DNA from: Patescibacteria group bacterium
GTDB taxonomy: Bacteria > Patescibacteriota > Minisyncoccia > UBA6257 > UBA9933
Length of the DNA: 64,000 nt
Reading direction: 5' to 3'
NCBI GenBank assembly: GCA_038057075.1
Contig: JBBUDV010000006.1
Coordinates: 2,216 to 66,215 of the forward strand
Shown here: in pieces, positions 10,311 through 49,199 of the stretch
Layout: each line of letters starts with the position of its first letter
Position numbering within the stretch: position 1 is the stretch's first letter
Notes under the pieces: generated by a model
The model's database searches: none
What the model saw: the letters and a program-made list of their open reading frames with translations, nothing else
What the model was told of the DNA's origin: nothing
Made by a program: the position numbers and the translations under genes

Positions 10311-10400
10311 TTACATTTGGCAGCGAGACCGCAAAAAAAACTTAGTTTTATTTGCGGCGAGCGAACCAAATGAAAAAAATGTTACGCTCCGTAACATTTA
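10311..10400. repeat. Repeat family A copy 1 (~90 bp, two-hairpin intergenic element)
   Basis: ttacatttggcagcgagaccgcaaa...tttgcggcgagcgaaccaaatgaaaaaaatgttacgctccgtaacattt. Lies 8 nt upstream of the DMT gene start. Confidence 0.8.
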
Positions 10401-10425
10401 TTATACCATTATCGCCATTACGCTA

Positions 10426-11685
10426 TTATAATGCTTCTTTTGTATAGATATTTGAAGCATTCCAAAGCATAAATCCGCTATATCTTTGTCCCAAAGAATC
10501 CGAAACTGCCTTTATTTGGGCTTTTACCATTTCAAGCGAGTAAATGGCTCCAAGGTTAAAATCCTGCAACCAAGGCCTTATTTTGGCTGTTATTCGAGGT
10601 TTTACAGCCCCAGAAGGCGTTTCTTTAGTGGAAGTTGCGTTTTTCAGATCTTCTTGAGTTTCAAAATTAATCAATCTTTTAACAGCTTCGTCAATGGAAT
10701 ATTTTACTATCTCGTAAGGATATTTAGCTGGATTGGAAAAATTTAAAGTCCCGGGATAATAATGTGATGGATAAACCATTGGACAGACAAAATCAAAATA
10801 TTTATAAGCGTCTTCCAATATCTGGCCTATGCCTAAATCGTCTTTTTGAATTGTCACCAATCCGAAAATATCCGCTGAAATTTTTGTTTCAGGCAACGAT
10901 TCACGAAGATATTTAAAAAATCCGTTGATTATTTTTTTCTTTGGAGTTTTTTGGTCCCAAAAAGAAAAATACATTGAACTCATGTCGCCGTCGGACGGAA
11001 ATCTGATGTAATCAAAATTTATTTCGTCAAAACCGCGGCTTGCGGCGTCTTTGGCAATGGCAATGTTATAATCCCAAACTTCTTTTGAAGTCGGGTCAGA
11101 CCATGCCAAACCTTTTTTGTCATACCAAGTCGGATACGGCGGCGTTGAAGAAGCGTTGGATTTTTTCTTTACCGCCAAATCGGGTCTGGCTTTAGCCAAA
11201 GCCGGGTCCTGAAAAACAGTGATTCTGGCAATGGCATAGATACCGTTATCGTGGAGTTTTTTGAGCAGAGCGTTTATTTTTTTGATTTTAACCTCTTTCG
11301 CCCCGTATTCGTCAATTTGAGGTAAATTTATTTCGTAAGAAACATAACCGGAATAATCTTTAATATCTATAACAACCGCGTTAAGGCCTGTTGTCTTTTT
11401 CAAATTAATTATTTCATTGATTTTCTTTTCACTGCCCCCTGACCACCCGGTCAGATAAACGGCTTTTATTATTTGCGGCGGGTCAATCAGAGGTTTTTGC
11501 GGCTCAATATCAATATTAAGCGGCTTTTTAATTTTTTCCTCCGCAACGGCATTTTTATCGGATTGTGCTATCTGGCTTGATTCTATTTGAAAATTTGTTT
11601 TCTTTGAAAAAACAAAAAAACCGATCCCGATAACCGGCAAAATTAAAGCAAATGAAATTAAATTTATTTTTTTTGAACGCTTCAA
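10426..11685 (-). CDS. DUF4015-type putative glycoside-hydrolase-like lipoprotein
   Basis: KAVYLTGWSGGSEKKINEIINLKKTTGLNAVVIDIKDYSGY resembles the PF13200 core. N-terminal signal/TM. Confidence 0.5.
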   Translation of the reverse strand: MKRSKKINLISFALILPVIGIGFFVFSKKTNFQIESSQIAQSDKNAVAEEKIKKPLNIDIEPQKPLIDPPQIIKAVYLTGWSGGSEKKINEIINLKKTTGLNAVVIDIKDYSGYVSYEINLPQIDEYGAKEVKIKKINALLKKLHDNGIYAIARITVFQDPALAKARPDLAVKKKSNASSTPPYPTWYDKKGLAWSDPTSKEVWDYNIAIAKDAASRGFDEINFDYIRFPSDGDMSSMYFSFWDQKTPKKKIINGFFKYLRESLPETKISADIFGLVTIQKDDLGIGQILEDAYKYFDFVCPMVYPSHYYPGTLNFSNPAKYPYEIVKYSIDEAVKRLINFETQEDLKNATSTKETPSGAVKPRITAKIRPWLQDFNLGAIYSLEMVKAQIKAVSDSLGQRYSGFMLWNASNIYTKEAL

Positions 11686-11686
11686 A

Positions 11687-12235
11687 TCAATTGATTTTTA
11701 ATAGTTCAACTTCAAAAACAAGCGTGGCGCCGGGCGGTATCGCTCCTGGAACGCCTCTTTCGCCATATCCCAATTCGGACGGAATAGTCAATTTGCGTTT
11801 TTCCCCGACTTTCATGCCCAACAATCCCTGTTCCCATCCTTGGATTACTTGTCCCGCGCCGAGAACAAAAGAAAACGGCTGTCCCCTGTCAATGGAAGAA
11901 TCAAATTTTTCCCCGTCTGTTAATGTACCAATGTAATGGGCAGTAATCTTATCGCCATTTTTGGCGCCTTCACCCTCGCCTTGCTTTAAAATTTCTACAT
12001 TTACCCCGTTAGAAATAATTTGTTTTATATTATTACCTTCGAGATTATTATTGTTGTTTGTATTTGAATTTCTAACGGGGTTTACCATAAGTTTGTTTTG
12101 ATTATTTTCGACTTTTTCAGAGTTAAAATCAATTTTCTTGCTGAAATAATAACCGCCTACAAATACGGCTATTACCAGAATCGCGGTTAAAAATAAATTT
12201 AAAAAATTTTTATTATTCATATAATTTATTGCCAT
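11687..12235 (-). CDS. FKBP-type peptidyl-prolyl cis-trans isomerase, membrane-anchored
   Basis: C-terminal FKBP domain ([15 protein letters not shown]...[20 protein letters not shown]...[11 protein letters not shown]). The N-rich linker carries the IR-C element in frame. Confidence 0.85.
12000..12086. mobile_element. IR-C family element inserted in frame in the FKBP gene
   Basis: Arms tttaccccgttagaaat / atttctaacggggttta flank 52 bp of AT-rich DNA. The element is 87 bp (29 codons) and encodes the low-complexity linker [28 protein letters not shown]. Confidence 0.55.
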
Positions 12236-12543
12236 TCACTGAACCCGTGTTCTAAATTATATACGTCTTGAAATCCCATAGGCGCCATAATTTTTTCCGC
12301 GCAAGCGCGGCTGCGGCCGCCTTTTTCGCAATAAACCAGATATTTTTTATTCTTATCCAATTTGTCAATTTTGTTCTGAAAATCCGGAGAATACATGTCT
12401 AAATTAACCGCATTTTCAAGATGTCCGCTGTCAAATTCTTCTTTCGCGCGTACGTCTAAAATTATAAAATCGGCGTTATTTTTATTTCCCTCAATAAGTT
12501 TTTTTGCCGCTTCAGAAGAAATATTTTTAATTTGTTGTTCCAT
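12226..12543 (-). CDS. Rhodanese-domain sulfurtransferase
   Basis: 105 aa with active-site Cys in YCEKGGRS. Confidence 0.8.
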
Positions 12544-12570
12544 CTCTGGAAAATTATAAATGATTTTCTA

Positions 12571-12610
12571 AAAAATAAAAAGCCCCGCCAGTCCATGAAC
12601 TGGCGGGGCG
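12571..12610 (-). terminator. Rho-independent terminator
   Basis: Stem gccccgccagt/actggcggggc with an A-run on plus, giving a U-run on minus. Confidence 0.5.
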
Positions 12611-12694
12611 AATACTACATCCTTCTTTGCAATAGGTAATTGCTCTCAAAAAATATCGCGGACGCATCATAAGCAATACCTCCTTTCATCTTAA

Positions 12695-12877
12695 TTATTT
12701 TTTCGGTTGGCATTGCAGGCAAACTACAGTTGGACATTTTAATATATTTTCTTCGCTTAAAATACCGATATTAGGTTCCCAAACATCATTAATTTTAATC
12801 GCATTGCAACCCGCGCATTTTATGATATTTTCTGCAATATTATTTATTACTTCAGGTCCGCCTTTTATGGTCCGCAT
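12695..12877 (-). CDS. Small Cys-rich protein (putative zinc ribbon), unknown function
   Basis: MRTIKGG... with CAGC...C...CxxC. A GGAGAGGGAG Shine-Dalgarno precedes the chosen ATG. The ORF-track start is 18 nt further upstream. Confidence 0.4.
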   Translation of the reverse strand: MRTIKGGPEVINNIAENIIKCAGCNAIKINDVWEPNIGILSEENILKCPTVVCLQCQPKK

Positions 12878-12935
12878 AATTTTCTCCCTCTCCAAATTAT
12901 AAATTTGCTAACATAAGAATATCATATTCTAATGT

Positions 12936-13757
12936 TTATGCAATAATTTTGACAAATCTCCACTTTTTATACTGATCTTTGTAAAATATCCATTTTTTAT
13001 ATTTTAATTGCTTTAAAATTTTCCCGATTAATGGTTTTTGAAATGAGTCAAATTCCATCCATATTTGACAGGTTGGTTTAATATATTGAACCGTTTGTTT
13101 TAAGAATTTTTTAATTATTTTAAGTCCGTCTTTTCCCGAGAATAATGCCTTTTTTGGTTCGTATTTTAAAACCTCCTTCTGAACCCTGTTTTTCCGTTTT
13201 AGAGCGACATACGGCGGATTTGCCAAAATAAAATCGTATTTATCTTTCAATAAATTTAAAGAGTGAACGGCTGTATCAATTATATTTTTACCGCTCGGGT
13301 TAACCCGAGCGGTAAAAATATCTGCCCGTATCACGCGATAACGAGATTTGTTGATTCTATTTATTTTCAAATTTAATTTTATCTGCTTTATCAAATTAGA
13401 ATCAATTTCATAAAAATCTACTTTTGAATTTTTTACATTTTTCAGGACAGAAATTCCCACACAGCCGGAACCGGCGAAAACATCCGCTATCTTTAAAGAT
13501 AGCGGCTTAGCATTCACGGAATAATCCAAAATTTTCGCAATTACTTTTTCAACCCAAAATTCCGTTTCCGGACGTGGAATCAACGGCTTAAAAGAAAGGT
13601 CTATTTCACAGTTTAAAAACGGTTTCCATCCTACGATATAATCAACCGGCTCGCCTTTTTTCAACCGTTTTATGTCATTTTCAATTTCCGGTCGGAGTTT
13701 GCCGCCATATTTATCTTTCAAAATCCAACCGATTTCTTTATAAAAATTTTTGGACAT
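12936..13757 (-). CDS. prmC: Release factor glutamine N5-methyltransferase PrmC/HemK
   Basis: SAM motif DVFAGSGCVGISV and the NPPY catalytic motif FILANPPYV. Confidence 0.8.
   Translation of the reverse strand: MSKNFYKEIGWILKDKYGGKLRPEIENDIKRLKKGEPVDYIVGWKPFLNCEIDLSFKPLIPRPETEFWVEKVIAKILDYSVNAKPLSLKIADVFAGSGCVGISVLKNVKNSKVDFYEIDSNLIKQIKLNLKINRINKSRYRVIRADIFTARVNPSGKNIIDTAVHSLNLLKDKYDFILANPPYVALKRKNRVQKEVLKYEPKKALFSGKDGLKIIKKFLKQTVQYIKPTCQIWMEFDSFQKPLIGKILKQLKYKKWIFYKDQYKKWRFVKIIA
13283..13320. mobile_element. Palindrome-B (38-bp perfect palindrome) inside the prmC coding sequence
   Basis: tatttttaccgctcgggttaacccgagcggtaaaaata encodes IFTARVNPSGKNI between the DIF and NPPY motifs, where PrmC normally has a much shorter spacer. 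An identical copy lies at 17863-17900. Confidence 0.6.
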
Positions 13758-14549: not shown

Positions 14550-14897
14550 TTACCATTCCGCTTTTCTGTGTCCGCCGCCAAATCCTCCTCTGCCTCCACT
14601 GCCTCCGCTACCTCCGCGGAAACCTCCTTCACCTCTCGGTGCTCTGGGTTCCATGGGGCGAGCTTCGTTGACGGTCCAAGTCCTTCCATCAACTTCTTTT
14701 CCGTTGAACATTTCAATAGCTTTATTCGCTTCATCGTCATTGGACATTTCCACAAAACCGAATCCTTTGGAACGGCCTGAAAATTTGTCTTTAATGACGG
14801 TCGCGGATTCAACCGCGCCTGCCTGCGAAAAAGTATTTTTCAAAATGTCTTCTGAAGTGTCATAAGACAAATTGCCAACGTACAATTTCTTTGCCAT
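14550..14897 (-). CDS. RRM-type RNA-binding protein with Gly/Arg-rich tail
   Basis: RNP-2 LYVGNL and RNP-1 KGFGFVEM, with a C-terminal RGG/GGS tail. Confidence 0.85.
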   Translation of the reverse strand: MAKKLYVGNLSYDTSEDILKNTFSQAGAVESATVIKDKFSGRSKGFGFVEMSNDDEANKAIEMFNGKEVDGRTWTVNEARPMEPRAPRGEGGFRGGSGGSGGRGGFGGGHRKAEW

Positions 14898-17088: not shown

Positions 17089-17286
17089 TTATCCGACCAC
17101 ATATAAATATCCGGCAATTCTGTTGCGTCGCCTCTTGCCATTAAAACATTTAATAGACATAACAGGAATTTTTTGCCTCTGAAAATTGCCTTTTAGACAT
17201 CTGTATGTGATTGCGACAATAACTCTTTTGCGAACGTCATTTCTATTGCAACGCAAACTTTTACATCCAAAACAGAATAATTGCAT
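17089..17286 (-). CDS. Small basic Cys-rich ORF
   Basis: Strong SD AAAGGAGG 7 nt upstream of ATG, and a hairpin terminator right after the stop. Confidence 0.3.
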   Translation of the reverse strand: MQLFCFGCKSLRCNRNDVRKRVIVAITYRCLKGNFQRQKIPVMSIKCFNGKRRRNRIAGYLYVVG

Positions 17287-17321
17287 TTCATCGCCTCCTT
17301 TTATCCGATTCTTACATTTGG

Positions 17322-17404
17322 CAGCGAGTCCACAAAGGGAACTTTAATTTCATTTGCGGCGAGCGAACCAAATGAAAAAATGTTACGCTCTGTGGCATTT
17401 TTTA
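17322..17404. repeat. Repeat family A copy 2
   Basis: ttacatttggcagcgagtccacaaagg...tttgcggcgagcgaaccaaatgaaaaaatgttacgctctgtggcatttttt. Confidence 0.8.
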
Positions 17405-17547
17405 TTGAATTTTAATTATTGGAACTAAAAATAGAATATCACTTAAATACTATTTTGTAAAGTGTTTTACTTTTTGCGCAAAAAGTTCGGCGCAAAAAAA
17501 GGCCCCGACAAAATGTCAGAGCCAAAGCGTTAAAACCGAAGTCTGGA

Positions 17548-17661
17548 CTACTTGGAGGGACAGCCGTAGTGGCACAGTTCACCGCCTCTGGAGCAGCTAC
17601 CGCAGGAGCTGATTGTCACTGTCTTGTTTGCCGGCTCTTTCTTGCTGTCGCCTTTTTTCAT
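17548..17661 (-). CDS. Small Cys-rich 37-aa ORF (unknown peptide)
   Basis: MKKGDSKKEPANKTVTISSCGSCSRGGELCHYGCPSK. SD GGAGA sits 6 nt upstream; a sigma70-like promoter (TTGACA-17-TATTTT) and a ~90-nt 5' leader precede it. Too short to appear in the ORF track. Confidence 0.35.
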   Translation of the reverse strand: MKKGDSKKEPANKTVTISSCGSCSRGGELCHYGCPSK

Positions 17662-17750
17662 GCCAGATCTCCTTTTTGTCCGGATTCCTACTTATCCGAC
17701 ATCTAGCCGGCTTGTGGATTCCGAACCATCCTTGGTCATGTTCTGATTAA

Positions 17751-17779
17751 AAAATAGCATATTTATATCAGATTGTCAA
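17751..17779 (-). promoter_or_regulatory. Putative sigma70-like promoter for the 37-aa ORF
   Basis: Minus-strand TTGACA - 17 nt - TATTTT. Confidence 0.4.
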
Positions 17780-17862
17780 GTATTTTAAAACATCATTATT
17801 CGCTTTTATGGAACTTTAATAATTATAGCGCAATTTGTCGTTTTGTGAATAACCTTAAATGA

Positions 17863-17900
17863 TATTTTTACCGCTCGGGTTAACCCGAGCGGTAAAAATA
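17863..17900. repeat. Palindrome-B copy 2, intergenic, terminator-like
   Basis: Identical 38-bp palindrome tatttttaccgctcgggttaacccgagcggtaaaaata, 6 nt after the CAP gene stop. Confidence 0.7.
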
Positions 17901-17905
17901 GTTGA

Positions 17906-18804: not shown

Positions 18805-20121
18805 TTAAAAACCTCTGCCAAAGCCCGATGATCTTGACGTGAAATGTTTCGTCCGTCCGCCAAATGCGGAACTCACCGCGCTGTCAGACGCTTTTTTGCC
18901 GACAAAAGTAAGCGCTATTCCTTTTTTGTCCGCTCTGCCGGTTCTTCCTATTCTATGAATATAATCCTCATAGGTTTTCGGAATATCGTAATTAATAACA
19001 TGGCTTACTTCCGGAATATCCAGTCCTCTGGCAGCCACATCGGTTGCCACCATTATCTGAATTTTATTTTCTTTAAATAATTTTAAAGCAAATTGACGGT
19101 TTGAATGAGTTTTATCTCCGTGTATTGAAACCGTTTTAAAACCGCGCGCGTTTAAAGAATTAGAAAGCCGCTCAACTCCCATTTTAGTTGTTCCAAAAAT
19201 CAAAACCTTTTTAAAATTTTCCTTAATCAGCAAATCATGCAATATCTCTGTTTTATCATCAGCCATCCCGATTCTTATCACGTCTTGGTCCACATTGGAT
19301 GAAGTGTCTCTGATTTTTGTTTCAATTTTTACCGGATTTTTCAAAAAACTTTGCGACAAATTTTCAATTTCTCGCGACAAAGTGGCGCAAAACAAAAGTG
19401 TCTGTTTTTCTTTGAACATTTGTCCCAATATTAATTTTATATCATTAATAAAACCCATATCAAGCATTCTGTCGGCCTCGTCCAAAACAACATTTTTACA
19501 TTCGTTCAAATTTATAATTTTTCTTTCAATCAAGTCCTTTAATCTTCCGGGAGTTCCTATTAAAACATTGCATCCGCGCCTTAATTGCATAATCTGTTCT
19601 CTCATACTCGCGCCTCCCACAATCGCGACGGAATAAATATTTAATCCTTTTGAAAAGTCCCTAAATTCGCCGTTTATTTGGAGAGCGAGCTCTCTGGTCG
19701 GAGCCATTATCAAGACCCTTTCCCTTTTATTTTTAATGATTTTATCAATAAGCGGAATCAAAAATGCCGCTGTTTTCCCTGTTCCAGTATCCGCCATGCC
19801 GATTATATCCTTCCCTTCTAAAATTTCCGAAATTGCTTTATCCTGAATCGCGGTTGGTTTAATATAACCTTTTTGAGTAATATTGTTTTTTAATTGCTCG
19901 TCAATTTTATAATCGCTGAATTTATTAGTTGAAACATAATCAACAATATTATTATTTACGCTTGCTTTATTGATAAATTTTGATTCATCAATTTTTGAGC
20001 CCGAAAAACCGCGCGCCTTTCCTCCGCCGCGCCCAAAACTGCGCCCGCCAAATCCATGGCCGCCGCCAAAACTGCCCCTTGATCCGCTTCCGGATCTTTT
20101 GTTATTAAAATTTCCTCTCAT
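18805..20121 (-). CDS. DEAD-box ATP-dependent RNA helicase with RGG-rich termini
   Basis: Q motif, AxTGTGKT, PTRELA, DEAD, SAT and HRIGRTGR motifs. Confidence 0.9.
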   Translation of the reverse strand: MRGNFNNKRSGSGSRGSFGGGHGFGGRSFGRGGGKARGFSGSKIDESKFINKASVNNNIVDYVSTNKFSDYKIDEQLKNNITQKGYIKPTAIQDKAISEILEGKDIIGMADTGTGKTAAFLIPLIDKIIKNKRERVLIMAPTRELALQINGEFRDFSKGLNIYSVAIVGGASMREQIMQLRRGCNVLIGTPGRLKDLIERKIINLNECKNVVLDEADRMLDMGFINDIKLILGQMFKEKQTLLFCATLSREIENLSQSFLKNPVKIETKIRDTSSNVDQDVIRIGMADDKTEILHDLLIKENFKKVLIFGTTKMGVERLSNSLNARGFKTVSIHGDKTHSNRQFALKLFKENKIQIMVATDVAARGLDIPEVSHVINYDIPKTYEDYIHRIGRTGRADKKGIALTFVGKKASDSAVSSAFGGRTKHFTSRSSGFGRGF

Positions 20122-23961: not shown

Positions 23962-24342
23962 TTATTTTTTTAAAGCAAAGAAACTAATAACTAAAGCAAT
24001 AACGCTCACAATAATGGATAAAATGATAAATAAATTGTGTCTATCATACAAGATAAAACGCCACGCCTTTGTCCAGTAAGAATCAAACTCTTGATGTCCT
24101 CGGGGTGTAAGAATATAAAAAATATCAGGCAATTGGTCTTGTCGTATAACCTTATCTTCTTTCTGCAGCAGATCTAACTGATGTTTAATAATTGTATTAG
24201 ATTCCGCTGGTTGTTTGTTTCTTTCCCAGTAATTCAGTGTTGTTTTATTGACAATGTGTCGCCAAGTGGCGACACCGTTACTAATTTTGATAATTTGCAA
24301 AATCAATTTTTGAAGCTTTTTATCCATAATTTTATTTTTCAA
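23962..24342 (-). CDS. Hypothetical protein with C-terminal TM
   Basis: 126 aa ORF. Confidence 0.3.
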   Translation of the reverse strand: MKNKIMDKKLQKLILQIIKISNGVATWRHIVNKTTLNYWERNKQPAESNTIIKHQLDLLQKEDKVIRQDQLPDIFYILTPRGHQEFDSYWTKAWRFILYDRHNLFIILSIIVSVIALVISFFALKK

Positions 24343-24582
24343 TCATTTTTTGACCTTTTGCTTTTTTAACCATTCCTCCAAAATCTCCTTCGGGTCGCGG
24401 TGGGTTATTTATTCCATTATATCATCAATACCGAAAATTAACCGAAAGTTATCTTTGTGTATATTCTCCCCTATTTCCCGCTTCGGGTCAATTTACCCCC
24501 ACACCAAAAAACACCCTAAAATTTTAAAATAAAAAAGGCGGAAAATCATTTTAGAAATTCCACCCTTGTATTTATTGCTTGA

Positions 24583-24849
24583 CTATTTTTTCCTTCCAAC
24601 CTTAGAAAAAACATCTTTGTATGCCTCTTCAAAAGAAATCCCTGTTCCGACTATTTCGCTGCGTCCGCCAAGAACGTCATGGCTATAAGCTTCCATAAAT
24701 TCATTTAAAATAATTAACCAAAAATAACTCTTATCTTTTTCGGAGTAGGAAATCTTTAATTTAAATCCCATATATTGGGATAAACCGCCTTTTCTTTCCT
24801 CGTTTAAATCCCTTATCAATTGTTCTAATTTTAGCATTTCGGTTTTCAT
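24583..24849 (-). CDS. Hypothetical protein
   Basis: 88 aa ORF. Confidence 0.3.
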   Translation of the reverse strand: MKTEMLKLEQLIRDLNEERKGGLSQYMGFKLKISYSEKDKSYFWLIILNEFMEAYSHDVLGGRSEIVGTGISFEEAYKDVFSKVGRKK

Positions 24850-24989
24850 TTCAGTGCTCCTTTCTGATTTTTATTCCATAATTAGCGAATAATTTTGTTA
24901 ATGTAGCTAAAAATAGAATAACATATTTAAAGCTATTTTGTCAATTACAAAAAGCGCCCTTCTTTAAAAGGCGCTTTGGAGACGTAAAA

Positions 24990-25175
24990 TTACTTTTCAG
25001 GCACAATCATACAGACGATAAAATAAGCAATCAGGCCGGGCGCAATGCCTGTAAAGACAGAAAGAAAAACGTAGCCCACGCGCAAAATCACCGGATCAAC
25101 GCCAAAATACTCCCCAAACCCTCCAATCACTCCGCAAAAAACCTTATTATCCTTGTTTCTATATAAACGTTTCAT
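24990..25175 (-). CDS. PspC-domain small membrane protein
   Basis: MKRLYRNKDNKVFCGVIGGFGEYFGVDPVILRVGYVFL. Confidence 0.6.
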   Translation of the reverse strand: MKRLYRNKDNKVFCGVIGGFGEYFGVDPVILRVGYVFLSVFTGIAPGLIAYFIVCMIVPEK

Positions 25176-25311
25176 AGAGATATTATAACATAAATAATAA
25201 ACTTTACAAAAAACAAAGCCCCGCTTGATTTTGAGCTTTACTATTTATCCATAAATTGTGTATAATGTAATTATATAAAGGTCTAAACTAAATAAATTAA
25301 TAAACAATTTT

Positions 25312-25569
25312 ATGGAACAAAAAGGCAATTCTGCGTTTATGAAGCCGATGAATATCGGCGAGGAGCTGGCGGTAATAGTCGGCAAGGGTCCCATGCCCAG
25401 ATCAGAGGTCGTCAAAAACCTTTGGGTGTATATCAAAAAACACAATCTTCAGGACCCAAAAGATAAGCGGAATATCAACGCTGACGAAAGTTTGAAGAAA
25501 GTATTTGGCGGGAAAGAAGTTGTCAATATGTTTGAAATGACAAAACTTATTTCCAAGCATCTCTCCTAA
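25312..25569 (+). CDS. SWIB/MDM2-domain protein
   Basis: PMPRSEVVKNLWVYIKKHNLQDPKDKRNINADESLKKVFG...MFEMTKLISKHL. Confidence 0.7.
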   Translation: MEQKGNSAFMKPMNIGEELAVIVGKGPMPRSEVVKNLWVYIKKHNLQDPKDKRNINADESLKKVFGGKEVVNMFEMTKLISKHLS

Positions 25570-25582
25570 TAACTTTTAGATA

Positions 25583-25620
25583 AAATAAAACAACCCGCCT
25601 CGGCGGGTTGTTTTATTTTG
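25583..25620. terminator. Bidirectional terminator between convergent SWIB and cspA
   Basis: aaaataaaacaacccgcctcggcgggttgttttatttt. Confidence 0.7.
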
Positions 25621-25649
25621 CTTCGTCTGCAAAAAAACGACAACAATCC

Positions 25650-25847
25650 TTAAATGCGGGTTACGTTTGTTGCGTTTGGTCCTTTGTCAGAGCTGGCTTT
25701 TTCGAAAGATACTTTGTCGCCAACCTTTAGATCTTCAAAGCTTACGCCTTTGAGCTCATTGCCGTGAAAAAATAAATCTTTTTCTTCGCCTTCAACCGTA
25801 ATGAATCCAAATCCTTTATCTGTAAGGGTTTTTATTGTTCCTTCCAT
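25650..25847 (-). CDS. Cold-shock protein (CspA family)
   Basis: KGFGFI RNP-1 and FFHGNEL motifs. Confidence 0.85.
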   Translation of the reverse strand: MEGTIKTLTDKGFGFITVEGEEKDLFFHGNELKGVSFEDLKVGDKVSFEKASSDKGPNATNVTRI

Positions 25848-26056
25848 AGTTATAAAGTTAATTTAATTAATGTTTTAAGGTTTTATCCTAAAGTTTAGTT
25901 TTTTAAAAAACTCGACTAAATTTTATTTAAACAACTATCTTATAAACAATGCTAACATACAAAAACCAAATAGTCAATATAATTCATAAAATACTTTGCT
26001 CCCTCTGTACAACGAAATCCGAACGCATTTTGAAAGCGATTTCATTTGGCATATTT

Positions 26057-26479
26057 TTAAGATTTTACTATGTATGTTTTGATAAATTTTTCTATTGCCA
26101 ATACAGTTTCGGTTTTTAATTTTGGGTTTGATTCCGCCACCCATTTGGCAAAATTATAAAGTTCTTGATTATCAACTTCCAACCATTTTTTGTTTTTGTG
26201 TAAAAAATAAAAAAGTGTCATCATGGCAATCCGTTTATTTCCATTTTTAAACGGATGGTTTTTAACCATTAAATAAAATAATACCGACACTTTCCCAATA
26301 AATCCTTTATATAACGGCTTGCCGCCGAAAGTTTGGAATGGCGCGATTAAACAACTTTCTAAAATATTAGGATAACGCGAACTAAAATCAGGAATTGGCT
26401 CATCCCATGCCATCATTTCTTTTGCCAACCAATAAGCGACATATTCAACTTGAATGATTGAAATTATTTTTATTTTCAT
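26057..26479 (-). CDS. Doc/Fic-family toxin, copy 2
   Basis: Identical over most of its length to copy 1; the C-terminus differs (KTYIVKS). Confidence 0.7.
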   Translation of the reverse strand: MKIKIISIIQVEYVAYWLAKEMMAWDEPIPDFSSRYPNILESCLIAPFQTFGGKPLYKGFIGKVSVLFYLMVKNHPFKNGNKRIAMMTLFYFLHKNKKWLEVDNQELYNFAKWVAESNPKLKTETVLAIEKFIKTYIVKS

Positions 26480-26659
26480 TATTCTTTTCCTAATAATTTC
26501 AAAGTTTCGCCATATTCCTTGATGGTTTTTTTAACGGCTTTTTCAATTTCTCGTTTTTTATCTTCAGTTAAAACCTCTCCCAAAACATCCGGCAAATTTT
26601 TTTTATTAATCATAAAATTGCGACCGATTTTTTGGGCCTTAATTTTACCGGATTTAATA
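26076..26659. repeat. Large direct repeat arm 2
   Basis: Near-identical to 22755-23338, offset 3321 bp. Confidence 0.85.
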
Positions 26660-26736
26660 TTCTTAAATACCGCTACTCGACTAATACCTAACAATTTAGC
26701 GACTTCAATTGTAGATAAAAACTGTTTCCTTATCAT
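26479..26736 (-). CDS. Excisionase-family HTH protein, copy 2
   Basis: N-terminus diverged (MIRKQFLSTIEVAK...); the rest is identical to copy 1. Confidence 0.6.
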   Translation of the reverse strand: MIRKQFLSTIEVAKLLGISRVAVFKNIKSGKIKAQKIGRNFMINKKNLPDVLGEVLTEDKKREIEKAVKKTIKEYGETLKLLGKE

Positions 26737-26752
26737 ATTACCAATATAATTT

Positions 26753-26781
26753 ATGTTAACCTATGAGTCAATGGTTAACAT
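26753..26781. promoter_or_regulatory. Inverted-repeat operator upstream of HTH-doc copy 2
   Basis: atgttaacc - N11 - ggttaacat. Confidence 0.4.
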
Positions 26782-26910
26782 AAGTTAACAAAAAACAGAG
26801 GCATTAACCTCTGTTCGTACACACTGGCTCCGCATCGTGGACGACGTTAGAACTATTTTTGAGAAACAAAATGAGTATATTTATATACTTATTTTAAAAT
26901 AAAAAACCAG

Positions 26911-28212
26911 TTATTTTAAAAATTTAAATGATACGATAATTTGATCGAGAACATTCCCATAATCCTTTTTAGAACCCATGCCTATTAATATTTTATTCTG
27001 CCCAAATGGTAAAATAATTGCATCTGATATTAGATCACCAAATTCATATCTATATCTGATCCCTGGTACACCGGCAATAATCACAGTGGAAGTTGTTCTT
27101 CCAGCCCCAAGAAAAGATTTATCTGAAAATTCCAGAGAAACAACATCGATAACAAATGGATAACTATAATTGTTTTTATTTATAATAGGCCCAACTACAA
27201 GCTCAAACCTAACATCAGACCCTATCCCGCGAGATTTTTCTAAAACAATCCAATCTCTGGGATATTTGAACTCAAAACCATATTTATCATTTTTATAAGT
27301 TAGCCAGGTTAGAGCGGAGTATTGGATTGCTGCTTGATAATTCAAACAATACCAATTCGTATATGCCGCGTCAGCACCACAATTAAATGCTGATATTTGA
27401 GCATCATTGGTACAATTATAACCATAGGTATCGCCATGATAAGAATCTTTTAGAATTGAACTGGTATTAGTAGAAAGGCGAGATCCTAAAATATAACTTT
27501 GTTTATTGTCACTTAGACAATAAACATAACTTTCTCCCAATTTCGGATCACTAGGCATATTAAAATTATTTAAATTTAAATTATTAAATTTTGATTGCAA
27601 ATCACTCCATTTTTCAGCATCTGGATAAGCACTATTATTTACTTTATACATAACTTCTAAATTACTCTGAATTTTTTGCAAATCAGAAATTTTTCTTGAA
27701 TCATAAGCAACAACATATTTATTACTCCTAATAAAAAAAGAAACTCCAAAAATTAGCGCAATAAATGATATACCTAAAGTTATGAATATTAATACTTTGT
27801 ACGTCCAAATTCGATTTTTTAGAATAAAATATATAATCCATATCAAAATCAATGATATTAAAGAAAAAATGAGTGTATATAAGATTATTTGACCGCACCT
27901 TAAATCCTCAGGCACACATAAGCTCGATAAAGAAAATACTATCCCTATAGAATAAAAAAATGAAAATATAATCGCGGTGCTCAAAAGAGCAGTAATTTTC
28001 TTTTGCCGCAATATCATAAAGGAAAAACTGCTAAATAAAATCAGTCCAATTCCGCCCCAAAATAAAAGATTTGTATAGGGATCTGATGGAAAATTAAGGG
28101 CAAAATTTGCCACGCCGGGAATAAATAGAAGTAAAAATGGAAATATTGGTGCAAATGGCAATGCAATTATAAGAGAAAGAATAATCTTCTCGATAAGCTC
28201 TTTTTTAGTCAT
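26911..28212 (-). CDS. Polytopic membrane protein with large extracytoplasmic C-terminal domain
   Basis: 433 aa: about 6 N-terminal TM segments followed by a Cys/Tyr/Asn-rich domain. Confidence 0.4.
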   Translation of the reverse strand: MTKKELIEKIILSLIIALPFAPIFPFLLLFIPGVANFALNFPSDPYTNLLFWGGIGLILFSSFSFMILRQKKITALLSTAIIFSFFYSIGIVFSLSSLCVPEDLRCGQIILYTLIFSLISLILIWIIYFILKNRIWTYKVLIFITLGISFIALIFGVSFFIRSNKYVVAYDSRKISDLQKIQSNLEVMYKVNNSAYPDAEKWSDLQSKFNNLNLNNFNMPSDPKLGESYVYCLSDNKQSYILGSRLSTNTSSILKDSYHGDTYGYNCTNDAQISAFNCGADAAYTNWYCLNYQAAIQYSALTWLTYKNDKYGFEFKYPRDWIVLEKSRGIGSDVRFELVVGPIINKNNYSYPFVIDVVSLEFSDKSFLGAGRTTSTVIIAGVPGIRYRYEFGDLISDAIILPFGQNKILIGMGSKKDYGNVLDQIIVSFKFLK

Positions 28213-28335
28213 TAATTAAATTATAACACAAAAAGTTCAAGTCCAATTCCTCTGTCACTTTTGTAGCAAAATTCATCCAGCAATGATGTGATTTTAAAAG
28301 TTAAAAATCTTGGCTCCTCGGGTAGGTATCCTTCA

Positions 28336-28638
28336 CTAAAGTTTCGGAATACCATTTTCCCCTCTAGAAGAATCTTTCTTTAAAACTTCAGAATTTAATA
28401 ATCGTTTATAGGCAAAAGCTTTTCCTGAACCTGTTTTTAAATATCGCTCAAAATCCTTTGCTAATTTTTGATTCTCAAAAGCGCTATAAAATACTAAATT
28501 CCAAGGTCTATATGGCGAAGTAGATTTTACCAAACCTTTATTATGCTCCAAAAATCTTTTCCGCAAATCTTCAGTATATCCAAAATAAAAATTTTTGGAT
28601 TTTGAGCTCCATAAAATATATGTATAGTGCATAGCCAT
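28336..28638 (-). CDS. GIY-YIG nuclease-domain protein (UPF0213-like)
   Basis: YTYILWSSKSKNFYFGYTEDLRKRFLEHN. Confidence 0.7.
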   Translation of the reverse strand: MAMHYTYILWSSKSKNFYFGYTEDLRKRFLEHNKGLVKSTSPYRPWNLVFYSAFENQKLAKDFERYLKTGSGKAFAYKRLLNSEVLKKDSSRGENGIPKL

Positions 28639-28658
28639 TCTGAAGCTTTAGCGAAAGA

Positions 28659-28733
28659 TGGCTCCGCAGGTAGGATTCGAACCTACGACCAACCGCTTAA
28701 CAGGCGGCCGCTCTACCACTGAGCTACTGCGGA
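28659..28733 (-). tRNA. tRNA-Asn (GTT)
   Basis: Cloverleaf TCCGCAG/CTGCGGA, anticodon loop CTGTTAA, T-loop TTCGAAT, encoded CCA. Confidence 0.85.
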
Positions 28734-28816: not shown

Positions 28817-28873
28817 TTACATTTGACAGCGAGTCCGTAAATAAAAAAAATGTCACGTTTCGTGACATTTTTT
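28817..28873. repeat. Repeat family A copy 3 (internally deleted)
   Basis: ttacatttgacagcgagtccgtaaat...aaaaaatgtcacgtttcgtgacatttttt. Confidence 0.7.
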
Positions 28874-31993: not shown

Positions 31994-32023
31994 ATGTTTT
32001 TAAGATTACTTGCCGCTATTTAT

Positions 32024-32113
32024 TACATTTGGCAGCGAGTCCACAAAGAAAACTTTGTTTTATTTGTGGCGAGAGAACCAAATGAAAAAATGTTACGTTT
32101 CGTGACATTTTTT
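32024..32113. repeat. Repeat family A copy 4
   Basis: ttacatttggcagcgagtccacaaagaaaactttgttttatttgtggcgagagaaccaaatgaaaaaatgttacgtttcgtgacatttttt, between the dnaJ stop and the next gene's start. Confidence 0.8.
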
Positions 32114-33254
32114 ATTCTTCTTCTTTTTCCAAATCCTCTAAAAGTTTTTTAGCCGCGCCGCTGATTTTTTTAGGAGTTTTAACTTTAAGTTTAAGCAATA
32201 AATCGCCTCGGCCACTCCGGTTGAAATGAGGCATTCCTTCGCCGGAAATTCTGATAAACCGGTTAATCTCAAAATCCGCCGGTATTTTCACTTTTATTTT
32301 TCCGCCCGAAATAACGGGAATCTCAAATTCTCTGACGCCGGCAAAATAAAGTAAAAGCGCGATTAAACTGATTTCCTTTTCAATTATCAAATCGTCACTT
32401 TGTCTGGAAAAAATTTTATGAAACTTAATCCTGATAATAATAAATAAATCCCCTTCTTCCATTCCTCTTTCTCCGGCTTCTCCGCCGCCTTTGATTTTTA
32501 TTATCTGATTGTCGGACACGCCGGGCAGAATTTTGATTGTCGTTTCCTTTTCTCCTTTCACGGCTCCCCTGCCTTTGCAAGAATCGCAAATTTTATTGGG
32601 CGTCTGACCCGAGCCAAAACAGCCGGAACACATTTTAACCTGCGTAAAACTGCCGAAAAAAGTGTTCCGATTTTCTTTTATTTCGCCTCTGCCCCCGCAA
32701 ACCGAACACGTGGAAAATCCGGATTTCGGTTCATGGCCCAAGCCGCTGCATTTAACGCATCTGACATCAACTTTATATTTGATTTTTTCCTCCGTGCCGG
32801 AAAACGCCTCTTCCAAACTTATTTCTTGAATCAATTGGATATCGGAACCGTGCTTATAAGTCCGCCTTTGCTCCTTTACGCCCAAACCTTCAAAAAACGC
32901 GTCAAAAATATCACCGATATCCGCGGCTCCTCCTCCGCCAAAATCAAAATTAAAACCAGAAGACCCGCCTTGAGCGCCGCCGAAGGGCCCGCCTTGACCG
33001 AAATCCCAGCCGCCGAATGGACTGCCTTGAGCGCCGCCGGAAGACTGTTCCTCAAAGACCCTGCCGAATTGGTCGTACTGATTCCGTTTTTGAGGATTGG
33101 ATAAAATCTGATACGCTTCGCTTAATTCTTTAAATTTTTTCTCGTCGCCGCCCGGTTTGTCAGGATGATATTTATGCGCCAGCTTACGATACGCTTTTTT
33201 TATGTCGTCTTGCGTGGCGTTTTTTTCAATACCTAAAATTTTGTAATAATTCAT
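32112..33254 (-). CDS. dnaJ: Chaperone DnaJ
   Basis: J domain with HPD; G/F-rich region; four CxxCxGxG zinc-finger repeats. Confidence 0.9.
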
Positions 33255-45899: not shown

Positions 45900-46895
45900 T
45901 TAAAATTGTTTGATAAATCTTAAATCACCCGAATAAAACAATCTGATGTCCGGAATTTTGTATTTAATCATCGCCAAACGGTCTATGCCCATCCCAAAGG
46001 CAAACCCCTGCCATTCGTTCGAATTGTATCTTACCGCGTCAAAAACGTTTCTATGCACCATGCCCGCTCCCATCACTTCCAGCCAACCGCCTTTATCCAG
46101 TTTAATATCAACCTCAACCCCCGGTTCAACGAATGGAAAATAACTCGGCCTAAACCGAAATTCTATTTTTTGCCCCTTAAAAAACTTTTTGAAAAATTCT
46201 TCAATGACAAATTTGAAATTTGCCAGCGAAACATCTTTGCCAACCATTAAACCCTCCAACTGATAAAAATTTATTTCATGGGAAGCATCAGTCGCTTCAT
46301 ATCTAAAAACCCTTCCCGGCGCGATTATCTGAAAAGGCGGATTATACTTTTCCATATATCTTATTTGAACCGGGCTGGTGTGAGTTCTTAAAAGCAGTCG
46401 GTTTTTGGTTTTCGCCTGCTTAAGCCAAAAAGTATCCCACATTTCCCGCGACGGATGATTTTGCGGAATATTTAACGCGTCAAAATTATATTGCTCATTC
46501 TCAACTTCCGGACCTTCAACAATGGAAAAATTCATTGAAGAAAATATCTGATTCATTTCATCTTCAACTTTCGCCAATATATGAATATGGCCTGATTCAA
46601 TTTTTTTAGCCGGCTTGGTGATATCCAAAACCGGCGCCATTAATGAACGCCTGTAATTAAGGTCGTCAATTTTTTCCTGAACCAAATCCTGAATTTCCTT
46701 TCTTATGGCATTTGCCTTGGCGCCGATTTCGCGGCGCTCTTCAACGGATAAATTCTTGAGCGAGCCCAAAATTTCGGTTAATTCGCTTTTCCTGCCCAGA
46801 TACTTAACGCGAATTTTTCCAAAATCCTTAAAATTTCTGATTTCGTCAATTTCTTTTATAAATTCCTGCCGGATTTTTTGAAGCTTTTCAATCAT
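45900..46895 (-). CDS. pheS: Phenylalanine--tRNA ligase alpha subunit
   Basis: Class II motifs 1-3 (FRYEATDASHE...GMGIDRLAM). Confidence 0.9.
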   Translation of the reverse strand: MIEKLQKIRQEFIKEIDEIRNFKDFGKIRVKYLGRKSELTEILGSLKNLSVEERREIGAKANAIRKEIQDLVQEKIDDLNYRRSLMAPVLDITKPAKKIESGHIHILAKVEDEMNQIFSSMNFSIVEGPEVENEQYNFDALNIPQNHPSREMWDTFWLKQAKTKNRLLLRTHTSPVQIRYMEKYNPPFQIIAPGRVFRYEATDASHEINFYQLEGLMVGKDVSLANFKFVIEEFFKKFFKGQKIEFRFRPSYFPFVEPGVEVDIKLDKGGWLEVMGAGMVHRNVFDAVRYNSNEWQGFAFGMGIDRLAMIKYKIPDIRLFYSGDLRFIKQF

Positions 46896-47017
46896 TAAAT
46901 AAAATTATAATCCATTTATTTTTAATGTTCAATCTTGATAAATTGCCGTAATGCGTTATATTTTAAGAAGTTGATTATAAATTATCTGTTATAGGTTATT
47001 AGTTATTAGTTTATCCT

Positions 47018-47105
47018 GGAGGGTTCGCATAGTGGTCTAGTGCGTCCGCTTGGAAAGCGGATATGCCGAAAGGCATCACAGGTTCAAATCCTGTACCCTC
47101 CGCCA
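47018..47105 (+). tRNA. tRNA-Ser (GGA)
   Basis: GGAGGGT acceptor stem, anticodon loop TTGGAAA, long variable arm, encoded CCA. Confidence 0.85.
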
Positions 47106-47134
47106 ATAAAATCCGCCCATAAGGCGGATTTTAC
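47106..47134. terminator. Terminator hairpin after tRNA-Ser
   Basis: aaatccgcc cataa ggcggatttt. Confidence 0.6.
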
Positions 47135-47144
47135 ATGTTGATTC

Positions 47145-47516
47145 TTAAGCAGCGCGTTTTTCGGGATGCCTCCTAAAATATTCTTCTTCAACCATTTTAT
47201 TTGAAATCATCGCTTCAAAATTGGAACGGGAGTCGTCTTGCGGCTTAAAATTATTGCCTTTTTGATTTTCCTGTTCATTTAAATAATTTTTTATGTGATT
47301 GCGGTATTCCTCAAATTCTTTATTGGTAAGATTATGCTTTTTTAATTTATCAAAAATCATCAAATCGCCGTCAGTTAATTTATCAACGTCAATAAAATCA
47401 AAATGAGGGTCTTTCCTTTTTTCTTTTTGTTCGTACAAAAAATCACGTAATTCTTCCAAATGTTTTACGTCAATTTCTTTTTGTTTTTCCGGTTGGAAAT
47501 TGATAATTTCGCCCAT
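47145..47516 (-). CDS. Hypothetical protein
   Basis: 123 aa charged ORF. Confidence 0.3.
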   Translation of the reverse strand: MGEIINFQPEKQKEIDVKHLEELRDFLYEQKEKRKDPHFDFIDVDKLTDGDLMIFDKLKKHNLTNKEFEEYRNHIKNYLNEQENQKGNNFKPQDDSRSNFEAMISNKMVEEEYFRRHPEKRAA

Positions 47517-47547
47517 ATTTTTTCATTTGGTTCGCTTCGTAATATTT

Positions 47548-48186
47548 TTACAGCGCCATTATAAAATTTTTACCCATGTTTTTCTTGGCTTGATACATCG
47601 CGATGTCCGCTCTTTCAATAAGTTCATATAAATTGAAAATTTCTTCCTTGCGTCTTTTACTAATAGCCGAAATCACGCCGAAACTCGCTGTAAATTTCCT
47701 TTTTTCCTTAACTTCGGGAATCCGCAATCTGGCCAATTTATCTTTCATTTTAGCCGCGACTTTATACGCTTCATTTTCGGAAGCATCCAATAAACCGATA
47801 ATAAATTCATCTCCTCCCCATCGGGCGACAACATCAAATTCCCTGACTGAATTGGAGAATATCTCGGCCGCCGATTTTAATAATTTATCACCCGATTTAT
47901 GGCCGTAAATGTCGTTGACTTTTTTCAGATCGTCTATGTCTATAAAAATCAAAGAAAAATTTTTAATATTAAACCCTTTTCTTTTTTCTTTTTTCGCGTG
48001 GACCGCATGCCCGGCTTCGTTTAAAAATTTCCACGCCTCCCTGACAAAACCCTGACGGTTATAAAGGCCTGTCAAAAAATCACGGTCAGCCGCCATTTGA
48101 AGACGCACAATTTCCTTATCTTTCTTTTCAGTTAAACTGACTAATCGCTTAATTTCGTTTTTTAATTGTTTAATACTTTCCGCCAT
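47548..48186 (-). CDS. GGDEF-domain diguanylate cyclase (coiled-coil N-terminus, no sensor domain)
   Basis: RDFLTGLYNRQGF and RWGGDEFIIGL. Confidence 0.8.
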   Translation of the reverse strand: MAESIKQLKNEIKRLVSLTEKKDKEIVRLQMAADRDFLTGLYNRQGFVREAWKFLNEAGHAVHAKKEKRKGFNIKNFSLIFIDIDDLKKVNDIYGHKSGDKLLKSAAEIFSNSVREFDVVARWGGDEFIIGLLDASENEAYKVAAKMKDKLARLRIPEVKEKRKFTASFGVISAISKRRKEEIFNLYELIERADIAMYQAKKNMGKNFIMAL

Positions 48187-48231
48187 CCGTAAATATTATA
48201 CCACAAAGGACGCGCAATAATGCGCGCTTTT

Positions 48232-49194
48232 TCAAAATTTCAATGCCTCCAAGGCCTTTATCCTTTCTTCAACCGGCGGATGAGTCATAAAAAGCTTGGC
48301 AATGCCGGAAAGTTTAGCCCCCTTAAAGGGGTTGTCCACCCATAGATGCGCGGTGGCGTTATTGGCTATTTTCATCGGAATCGCGCTTGCGGAAATTTTT
48401 TCCAAAGCCGAAGCAAGACCTGAAGGATTTTTGGTCAAAACCGCGCCCGAAGCATCGGCCAAAAATTCCCTTTTTCTTGATATCGCCAATTGGATAAGCA
48501 TGGCCGAAATCGGCGCGACAATCGCCAAAATAATTCCGACAACGGCAAAAATTTGATTGCCTCCCCTTTCATTATCTCTATTTCTAAAGCCGCCGAAAAA
48601 CGCGCTTCTTAAAAAGATATCCGAAACAATTGAAATAAAACCGACCAAAACCACGACAATTGTTGAAATTAGAATGTCGCGATTGGCAATATGAGACAAT
48701 TCATGCGCAAGCACGCCTTCTAATTCTTTTGCGTTCAATCTTTGAAGTAATCCCGTTGTAACCGCAATCGCGGCGTGTTTTGAATTTCTTCCGGTTGCGA
48801 AAGCGTTAGGTTGAGCTTCATCAATAATATAAATTTTAGGCGCGGGCAAAACGGCTTTTTTCGCCAATTCCCCTACAATTTTAAAAAGTTCGGGATAATT
48901 TTTCTTTTCAACCGGTTTGGCTTTTGTCATCGCCAAAACGATTTTATCCGAATACCAAAAAGAAATAACATTCATCAGCAAACTGAAAACAACCGCAAAA
49001 TATAAAATTGACGGATTGCCGTAAATTCTTGAAAAAAGCCAGCCAATTCCGATGACGCCGATTAAAAAAGCCGCAATTAAAATAAACGTCCTTCTAATAT
49101 TGGAATTTTTACATTTGGCAGCGAGACCGCAAAGAAAACTTTGTTTTATTTGCGGCGAGGGAACTAAATGAAAAAATGTTACGCGTTGTGACAT
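48232..49194 (-). CDS. htpX: HtpX-like M48 zinc metalloprotease (true start uncertain)
   Basis: HELSHIANRD HExxH motif and TM segments. The first ~31 codons of the track ORF are read from repeat-A copy 5. Confidence 0.75.
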   Translation of the reverse strand: MSQRVTFFHLVPSPQIKQSFLCGLAAKCKNSNIRRTFILIAAFLIGVIGIGWLFSRIYGNPSILYFAVVFSLLMNVISFWYSDKIVLAMTKAKPVEKKNYPELFKIVGELAKKAVLPAPKIYIIDEAQPNAFATGRNSKHAAIAVTTGLLQRLNAKELEGVLAHELSHIANRDILISTIVVVLVGFISIVSDIFLRSAFFGGFRNRDNERGGNQIFAVVGIILAIVAPISAMLIQLAISRKREFLADASGAVLTKNPSGLASALEKISASAIPMKIANNATAHLWVDNPFKGAKLSGIAKLFMTHPPVEERIKALEALKF

Positions 49195-49199
49195 TTTTT
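49109..49199. repeat. Repeat family A copy 5
   Basis: ttacatttggcagcgagaccgcaaagaaaactttgttttatttgcggcgagggaactaaatgaaaaaatgttacgcgttgtgacatttttt; overlaps the annotated htpX start. Confidence 0.8.

Follow-up and report, generated by a model that had tools for sequence, protein, structure and literature searches.

Comparison with known repeats and small RNA families

Several families of short intergenic repeats and small RNAs (sRNAs) resemble the element described here. ERIC/IRU of enterobacteria, bcr1 of the Bacillus cereus group, and BOX/RUP of pneumococci are imperfect palindromes of 90-150 nt, which are found in multiple copies in intergenic regions or at gene ends. Compensatory changes preserve their hairpins, and they can be transcribed and alter the expression of neighbouring genes. 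Each of them is confined to one genus or family, with tens to hundreds of copies. Multi-copy sRNA families, such as Sib/QUAD, Qrr, and OmrA/B, have recognisable promoters and known targets or partners. In this study, a repeated element was analyzed in a 64,000-nt stretch of DNA (the window, to which all positions refer unless a locus handle is given) from Patescibacteria of Hainich groundwater (ENA ERZ1292625), members of the candidate phyla radiation (CPR). The five repeats in the window belong to a conserved family of structured RNA-like units of about 90 bases with a built-in terminator, which occurs in ultra-small groundwater bacteria (Patescibacteria).

Judged from the general description of ERIC, bcr1, and BOX-type repeats, the element resembles them in its multiple copies, its placement between genes or at gene ends, and the compensatory changes in its hairpins. 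Unlike them, it is present in few copies per genome, occurs in hosts with GC contents of 37-54%, has an invariant internal loop, always carries its own terminator, and lacks a target-site duplication. Its hairpin, flanked by A- and T-runs at a convergent stop codon, is similar to the bidirectional intrinsic terminators of convergent genes; unlike a plain bidirectional terminator, a conserved 62-nt domain (helix P1, loop, and helix P2) lies upstream and the hairpin energy is asymmetric between strands. As in Sib/QUAD, Qrr, and OmrA/B, there are several diverged paralogues per genome, at times side by side (L040, L044, and L027), a structured body is followed by an intrinsic terminator, and the sequence is conserved far more than the neighbouring proteins. 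[quoted passage not shown] It differs from these in having no target-site duplication, no parent insertion sequence, no GTAG-type REP head, a low copy number, and long-term purifying selection on each copy.

Copies in the window and their structure

Four full-length copies and one internally deleted copy were found in the window, and all five were on the plus strand. Their parts are given below, where J5′ and J3′ are the two strands of the internal loop.

10311-10402, plus strand: copy 1, full length; minimum free energy -33.4 kcal/mol (z -7.3); covariance model 104 bits. UUA 10311-10313; P1 5′ arm 10314-10320; J5′ CAGCGAGA 10321-10328; P2 hairpin 10329-10357; J3′ CGAGCGAA 10358-10365; P1 3′ arm 10366-10372; A-run/hairpin/T-run 10373-10402.

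17312-17403, plus strand: copy 2, full length; covariance model 94 bits. P1 17315-17321 with 17368-17374; J5′ 17322-17329; P2 17330-17359 (one A·C mismatch); J3′ 17360-17367; terminator 17375-17403 (two U·G pairs).

28817-28873, plus strand: copy 3, internally deleted; covariance model 31 bits. First ~26 nt retained (UUA, P1 5′ arm with a G-to-A change, J5′, and the start of P2), together with the complete terminator, 28843-28873; P2 3′ half, J3′, and P1 3′ arm absent.

32023-32113, plus strand: copy 4, full length; covariance model 105 bits. UUA 32023-32025; P1 5′ arm 32026-32032; J5′ CAGCGAGU 32033-32040; P2 32041-32069; J3′ CGAGAGAA 32070-32077; P1 3′ arm 32078-32084; terminator 32085-32113.

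49109-49199, plus strand: copy 5, full length; covariance model 98 bits. P1 49112-49118 with 49164-49170 (one G·U pair); J5′ 49119-49126; P2 49127-49155; J3′ CGAGGGAA 49156-49163; terminator 49171-49199.

The 17-mer TTACATTTGRCAGCGAG occurred exactly five times in the window, always on the plus strand, which agrees with the five copies in one orientation of the original prediction. When up to three mismatches were allowed, six matches were obtained against 0.4 expected, and six were reached in 0 of 100 shuffles. The predicted coordinates were accurate overall, except that copy 2 starts at 17312 rather than 17322. The flanks of the copies were unrelated, and the similarity ended sharply at a TTACA boundary on one side and a few bases past the T-run on the other. 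No further copies were detected by covariance models R1-R3 elsewhere in the window or in the 9 kb beyond it. The truncated form represented by copy 3 was present also in other Hainich contigs and in Logan contigs.

According to the folding analysis, the 7-bp helix P1 (CAUUUGG/CCAAAUG) encloses an 8 × 8 internal loop and the P2 hairpin (CCGCAAA/UUUGCGG), and an A6-hairpin-U6 terminator follows. The element had been predicted to consist of two hairpins; both exist, and P1 is a third helix that had been missed. The loop is purine-rich, with CAGCGAGU on the 5′ side and CGAGCGAA on the 3′ side, and can be zipped into G-C, C-G, tandem G·A/A·G, and G-C pairs, leaving a 2 × 3 loop (CA/GAA) and a bulged U. 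In the case of copy 4, P2 is CCACAAA/UUUGUGG, a compensatory change relative to copies 1 and 5. The order of the unit is thus a 3-nt overhang, P1, the 8 × 8 loop, P2 (12-13 bp with a variable apex), an occasional helix P3, and the terminator. The folding z-scores of the plus-strand copies ranged from -3.6 to -7.3.

Relatives in other genomes and covariation

A 20-mer scan of 185,579 species genomes returned six matches in five CPR metagenome-assembled genomes, and a metagenome scan returned 32 loci, of which 29 were true copies and three were chance matches. In total, about 30 distinct relatives were found in other CPR genomes. The GC content of the host loci varied from 37 to 54%, while that of the element was near 40% throughout. 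Covariation was evaluated for an author-specified structure in alignment A2, which contained 27 distinct full-length members from other CPR contigs after removal of duplicates; the P1 5′ arm is invariant in A2 because it was fixed by the search pattern. Standard pairs were present in 94.6% of the cells, and 18 of the 35 pairs had changed on both sides. The observed values were reached in 0 of 500 shuffles, and only 40-48% of the cells were paired when partner columns were slid.

The covariance models R1-R3 were searched without the bias of the P1 pattern, while a hand-written stem/loop descriptor missed known divergent members. The following divergent members were obtained with R1-R3.

L040, 2-91: divergent member.
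L044, 427-518: divergent member.
L060, 9868-9963: divergent member.
L062, 14263-14363: divergent member.
L062, 9072-9160: divergent member.

In four of these five, P1 had been rewritten on both sides (CAAUCGG/CCGAUUG, UUCCGAC/GUCGGAA, CAAUUGG/CCAAUUG, and UAAUCAG/CUGAUUA). P2, the terminator, and, in these divergent paralogues, P1 all covary. Over 24 diverse members, the loop sequences A-G-(C/U)-G-A-G on the 5′ side and C-G-A-G on the 3′ side were invariant, while the stems varied. In three members, an additional GC-rich hairpin, P3, was inserted into the 3′ strand of the loop, at the same point in each. Loops that do not vary, stems that covary, and an insertion that comes and goes are together what is usually seen in a folded nucleic acid with a function.

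When the whole window was searched against Rfam 15 at gathering thresholds, six tRNAs were the only matches and no family was found for the repeat. When copy 4, L009, and the intergenic region of L062 were scanned permissively against Rfam, all matches were at chance level (≤22 bits, far below thresholds). A phage or plasmid origin was rejected: blastn against plasmids and phages gave no match, and four pattern matches in IMG/VR contigs were due to chance, with no covariance-model match. No description of such an element in CPR bacteria was found in the literature searched. The family is previously uncatalogued, and the element is a small structured RNA or structured intergenic repeat without an Rfam 15 family.

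Folding strand

The plus strand was more stable in 24 of the 27 members, with means of -37.1 and -32.6 kcal/mol for the plus and minus strands, respectively (Wilcoxon p = 2e-5, for sequences that are not independent). The strongest asymmetry was that of the terminator hairpin, with means of -9.2 kcal/mol on the plus strand and -6.6 kcal/mol on the minus strand. G·U cells outnumbered A·C cells (58:19), and the consensus has two G·U pairs, one in P2 and one in the terminator, which become C·A mismatches on the opposite strand. Moreover, the conserved loops are purine-rich on the plus strand. The plus strand is the probable, but not proven, folding strand. Among the readings offered earlier, a plus-strand RNA with its own terminator fits this strand evidence best.

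Orientation and neighbouring genes

Neighbouring genes were counted at 26 informative loci. The 3′ neighbour was convergent in 21 of them, and in at least 11 of these 21 the TAA stop codon of the convergent gene was made up of the last two T of the T-run and the following A. The 5′ neighbour was on the opposite strand in 18 loci and on the same strand in the other 8, and the gene on this side was 1 to >800 nt away. Three members (L034, L062a, and L062b) were located in sense orientation between genes. The neighbours were diverse and included dnaJ, grpE, rpsR, htpX, secA, secE, tyrS, a murJ-like gene, sigma factors, and a 5′-3′ exonuclease; thus, the element is not a leader for a particular gene class. 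Its orientation is not tied to the neighbouring genes and is not absolute.

In the window, copies 1, 3, 4, and 5 are located 0-25 nt downstream of a minus-strand stop codon (DUF4015 gene, 81-aa open reading frame (ORF), dnaJ, and rpsR, respectively). The 5′ end of copy 1 is 7 nt from the start codon of the EamA gene (10303), and its 3′ end is ~23 nt from the stop codon of the DUF4015 hydrolase gene (10426). Between copy 2 and the start codon of a basic 65-aa ORF (17089-17286, minus strand) there are 25 nt, and the stop codon of the next minus-strand ORF is ~145 nt away. Copy 3 is 7 nt from the stop codon (28881) of the 81-aa membrane ORF and 83 nt from tRNA-Asn (28659-28733, minus strand). In the case of copy 4, the dnaJ stop codon (32112-32114) overlaps the T-run, and a 154-aa membrane ORF starts 29 nt from the 5′ end. 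The rpsR stop codon (49221) is 21 nt from copy 5, and the annotated htpX (48232-49194, minus strand, 320 aa) starts at an ATG within the terminator hairpin of this copy, so that the annotated ORF is antisense to the entire copy.

The original prediction placed each copy 8-35 nt upstream of a minus-strand gene start. This spacing was approximate, as the gaps are 7, 25, 83, and 29 nt and htpX starts inside the element. Likewise, a position always 5′ of a minus-strand gene was correct for the window and does not extend to the family, given the counts above and the three sense members. An antisense overlap with the 5′ ends of neighbouring genes was found only at htpX; instead, it is at its own 3′ end that the element overlaps a gene, namely the convergent one at its stop codon. 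Because nearly all genes of the window beyond 7.6 kb are on the minus strand, gene orientation and replication orientation are inseparable in the window.

Terminator and promoter signals

The element ends in a stem-loop followed by a U-run, which is the form of an intrinsic terminator. Copy 4 was called terminator-like on the plus strand at 32085-32113 (13 pairs followed by T6), and copy 1 was called terminator-like on the minus strand. Copies 2 and 5 have the same terminator form, which falls below the G-C rule of the scanner. Accordingly, a terminator or insulator, one of the functions proposed earlier, is plausible for the A-run/hairpin/T-run part but leaves the P1/loop/P2 domain unexplained. 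For a promoter-bearing repeat, also proposed earlier, the promoter scan gave no support, as no sigma-70-type promoter was found in or within ~80 nt upstream of four copies on either strand; the sole exceptions were two chance-level matches beside or outside copy 2.

Favoured reading

In the reading that we favour, with moderate confidence, the plus-strand units are small structured RNAs that stand alone and make up a family of Patescibacteria (Paceibacteria-type CPR bacteria), with the GA-rich loop as a binding platform and a terminator that also serves the convergent gene. Each unit would be a small RNA gene of ~75-95 nt transcribed from the plus strand of the window, and a protein, or less probably a small ligand, would dock at the conserved purine-rich loop. 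As the terminator is flanked by A- and T-runs, it would also end the convergent gene, the TAA stop codon of which often falls in the T-run. The window genome has at least five copies, gained at new sites (an operon junction and a gene 5′ end). The conserved covarying structure is independent of the neighbours, which are diverse and in both orientations, as in trans-acting sRNAs. Repetition, the structure with its covariation, strand asymmetry, and conservation across diverse hosts, including one orthologous site described below, are shown, as is the absence from Rfam, whereas transcription of the plus strand, action in trans, and a protein partner are inferred. CCAAATG was not enriched as a start-codon target of the P1 arm, with 2 of 21 occurrences at ORF starts.

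Several results weigh against stand-alone RNA genes. Besides the negative promoter scan, no conserved motif was observed in the column composition of 29 upstream flanks, and a -35 weight matrix showed no enrichment compared with random positions (P = 0.14). At many loci, no more than 1-54 nt separate the 5′ end from a divergent gene's start codon; therefore, there is no room for an ordinary promoter. Unlike Sib/QUAD, Qrr, and OmrA/B, the element has yielded no promoter, opposing toxic ORF, or target. In the case of the folding strand, G·U and A·C were nearly balanced when counted by column (16 vs 14 in a per-pair tally), and the P3 inserts alone folded slightly better on the other strand. UUCG tetraloops in P3 were rejected as proof of the RNA strand on the same ground and because RNAfold prefers another register. 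Finally, the family was absent from the ~130 kb available from the closest, Wolfebacteria-like relatives when searched with models R1-R3, and its distribution is thus too patchy for a housekeeping RNA.

Alternative explanations

The main rival is a domesticated MITE-like repeat, which is possible but doubtful. It would be a short DNA element, not autonomous, whose terminal inverted repeat is P1 and which spreads or is copied within and between CPR genomes; it would be kept for its compact bidirectional terminator/insulator, and the loop would be the binding site of a mobilising enzyme. Its multi-copy nature (five copies in 39 kb), the internal deletion of copy 3, the match of the P1 arms as inverted repeats at 9 of 10 positions, and the near-identical sequences in hosts of differing GC content are consistent with this explanation. 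At L027 2519-2703, two identical copies are arranged exactly head to tail, and the T-run of the first abuts ACATTTGG of the second without a spacer.

Two sites of the window were compared with those of relatives; the closest DnaJ and HtpX relatives were Wolfebacteria-like (64-72% identity). In three relatives, dnaJ and a membrane gene orthologous to the 154-aa ORF next to copy 4 (40% identity, E = 9e-18) are 0-54 nt apart; copy 4 has thus been inserted where two genes of an operon meet. The family is missing from the syntenic regions of the closest relatives. HtpX homologues are ~301 aa long and begin with MTLYTQK-SNIRK, and in the window the first ~7 codons have been replaced by the end of copy 5. 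The window HtpX possibly starts at an ATT codon before RRTF, or it possibly has a genuine 33-aa extension encoded by the element. Synteny with L056 and L058 is also broken at the site of copy 5 (47548-50437): the window has the order rpsF-ssb-rpsR-element-htpX-GGDEF without lemA, while the relatives have groES-groEL-lemA-htpX-GGDEF. From the head-to-tail pair and the insertions at the operon junction and htpX, it was concluded that copies were gained at new sites by some duplicative process.

Other features do not suit a MITE-like repeat. Neither a target-site duplication nor a conserved flanking target was observed in the flanks of ~30 copies. P1 forms an inverted repeat, but the terminator is outside P1 and yet is part of the repeated unit and always travels along with it. 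There was no transposase nearby and no match in phage, plasmid, and viral collections; an autonomous insertion sequence or transposase was not seen in the loci at hand, although no genome-wide search was made. The loop motifs keep the same sequence on the same strand and are not a DNA palindrome. The window copies are mutually 84-91% identical and no closer to each other than to copies of other genomes, so a recent burst did not occur; they are old (9-16% diverged), and each has kept its fold through compensatory changes. Moreover, L007 and L042 carry the element at the 3′ end of orthologous secA, with SecA proteins 54% identical and elements 81% identical. Retention of an orthologous copy over this distance points to long-term purifying selection at one site.

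It is unlikely that the 90-nt unit is a complete self-contained transcription unit in which the P1 5′ arm doubles as a -10 element (TAcAtT). Nearly all members have, in one common register at positions 2-7, a hexamer that resembles a -10 element (TACATT, TACAAT, TATAAT, CACAAT, and CATATT). The hexamer lies in the P1 5′ arm, and across 24 members A3, which is outside P1, is invariant and T7 is nearly invariant. In L062b, the hexamer is part of TGCTATAAT, which is conserved in three genomes. The invariant AGCGAG would in that case contain the transcription start and the built-in terminator would supply the end, with the P1 5′ arm present in DNA only, and a unit that had been copied elsewhere could remain expressed. 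If this were true, the element would be a selfish small RNA gene, similar to a short interspersed nuclear element (SINE), in ultra-small genomes, and the P1 complementarity would link the single-stranded tail of the RNA to its own promoter DNA.

A minus-strand cassette, in which the terminator of the upstream gene is joined to a structured leader or promoter for the next gene, merges the terminator and promoter readings offered earlier and is quite improbable. The window copies are suitably placed for it, as each follows a minus-strand stop codon by 0-25 nt (~145 nt for copy 2) and precedes the next gene of that strand by 7-83 nt, and the convergent 3′ neighbours with stop codons in the T-run and the minus-strand terminator-like site at copy 1 also agree with it. 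However, the minus-strand fold was the weaker one in 24 of 27 members, with a consensus C·A mismatch in the terminator and pyrimidine-rich loops, and the minus strand has no promoter save the two chance-level matches outside copy 2. In 8 of the 26 loci the 5′-side gene shares the strand of the element, its distance varies widely, and the genes downstream in the cassette (EamA gene, tRNA-Asn, htpX, secA, murJ-like gene, and others) are unrelated. The structured domain would also come after the terminator.

Similarly, there is little likelihood of a plus-strand cis attenuator or riboswitch-like device, in which P1, the loop, and P2 would be a sensor that controls the adjoining terminator, either for a same-strand gene or antisense into the convergent gene. 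A hairpin with an internal loop directly followed by a terminator is the layout of a transcriptional OFF switch, a same-strand gene begins 9 nt past the end of L062a, and an alternative helix of 6 bp, as read from the sequence, could form between the P1 5′ arm and the terminator's 5′ half. This alternative pairing is, however, weak and without covariation, the downstream gene is mostly convergent, same-strand downstream genes are mutually unrelated, and no Rfam riboswitch matched.

A single-stranded DNA element, that is, a strand-specific hairpin for an HUH transposase, primase, or recombinase in replication or recombination, would explain the strand-specific conservation and the five window copies on one strand of a region with uniformly negative GC skew, but it is the least credible, since the folding strand is by GC skew the lagging-strand sequence and therefore not the strand exposed as the lagging-strand template, the conserved left-flank target of 4-5 nt required by IS200/IS605 is missing, the orientation varies between loci, and no associated enzyme gene was seen.

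Other known classes

Membership in known classes was also considered, and the following were rejected. An IS200/IS605-derived PATE or REP does not agree with the variable left flanks, the lack of a GTAG head, and the few copies per genome. The riboswitch or cis-attenuator class was rejected on the 21 convergent 3′ neighbours in 26 loci, the same-strand cases being unrelated genes. In the case of the kink-turn, Watson-Crick pairs adjoin the tandem GA at either end, as read from the sequence, and the 2 × 3 loop (CA/GAA) is two G-C pairs away. Integron attC sites were rejected as neither R″ (RYYYAAC) nor R′ (GTTRRRY) boxes could be read on either strand and the neighbours are housekeeping genes. 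A type I toxin-antitoxin sRNA (Sib-like) was rejected because no conserved ORF runs through the element and the reading frames differ between copies. By their general descriptions, signal recognition particle RNA, 5S loop E, the retron msr motif (UUAGCGAGAGG of Ec86), and bridge or TIGR guide RNAs fail on architecture, copy number, or defining motifs.

Other features of the window and of related loci

At ~7600, the gene orientation flips from plus (1840-7591) to minus (7644 onward), and the GC skew changes from slightly positive to negative. This switch resembles a replication terminus, and all five copies are within 42 kb on one side of it.

The 65-aa ORF beside copy 2 (17089-17286, minus strand) is very basic and CxxC-rich, with a perfect AAGGAGG Shine-Dalgarno sequence at a spacing of 7 nt and a terminator of its own; it has the look of a genuine small protein of the zinc-ribbon type. 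On the other side of copy 2 is an unusually long non-coding stretch (17405-17905, minus strand). Past the terminator of a CAP-domain gene, it holds a box of the TTGACA type, then a structured leader richer in GC, and then a Cys-rich ORF of 37 aa (17548-17661), which has a Shine-Dalgarno sequence and terminators to itself. The stretch had no Rfam match and could be a small peptide gene with a regulatory leader. A few kb from copy 2, an RRM-domain RNA-binding protein (14550-14897) and a DEAD-box helicase (18805-20121) are encoded, which are candidate RNA partners by proximity only.

The region 24000-28700 has a low GC content (0.32) and encodes ORFs with Fic, HTH_17, cold-shock, and SWIB domains, and a GIY-YIG ORF within it (28336-28638) adjoins tRNA-Asn. 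Possibly an island has been integrated here, next to the truncated copy 3.

A long murB-hpf intergenic region was observed in three Liptonbacteria-like genomes (L060 ~9200-9260, L061 ~9190-9240, and L062 9030-9075). A perfect DnaA box (TTATCCACA) is located ~30 nt upstream of the conserved TGCTATAAT, further conserved blocks follow, and L062 has a tiny Lys-rich ORF. A promoter under the control of DnaA may lie here, or the region may belong to an origin.

Significance

CPR bacteria make up a large share of bacterial diversity and have tiny genomes with little non-coding DNA, and their regulatory RNAs are almost undescribed. The element has been multiplied in some of these genomes and is tolerated within operon junctions. 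It also misleads annotation, because the public htpX model starts inside copy 5. The covariance models of this study make the family searchable. As a 90-nt element under purifying selection on both sequence and structure, in hosts with GC contents of 37-54%, it is a candidate for a lineage-specific RNA-protein system or regulatory device.

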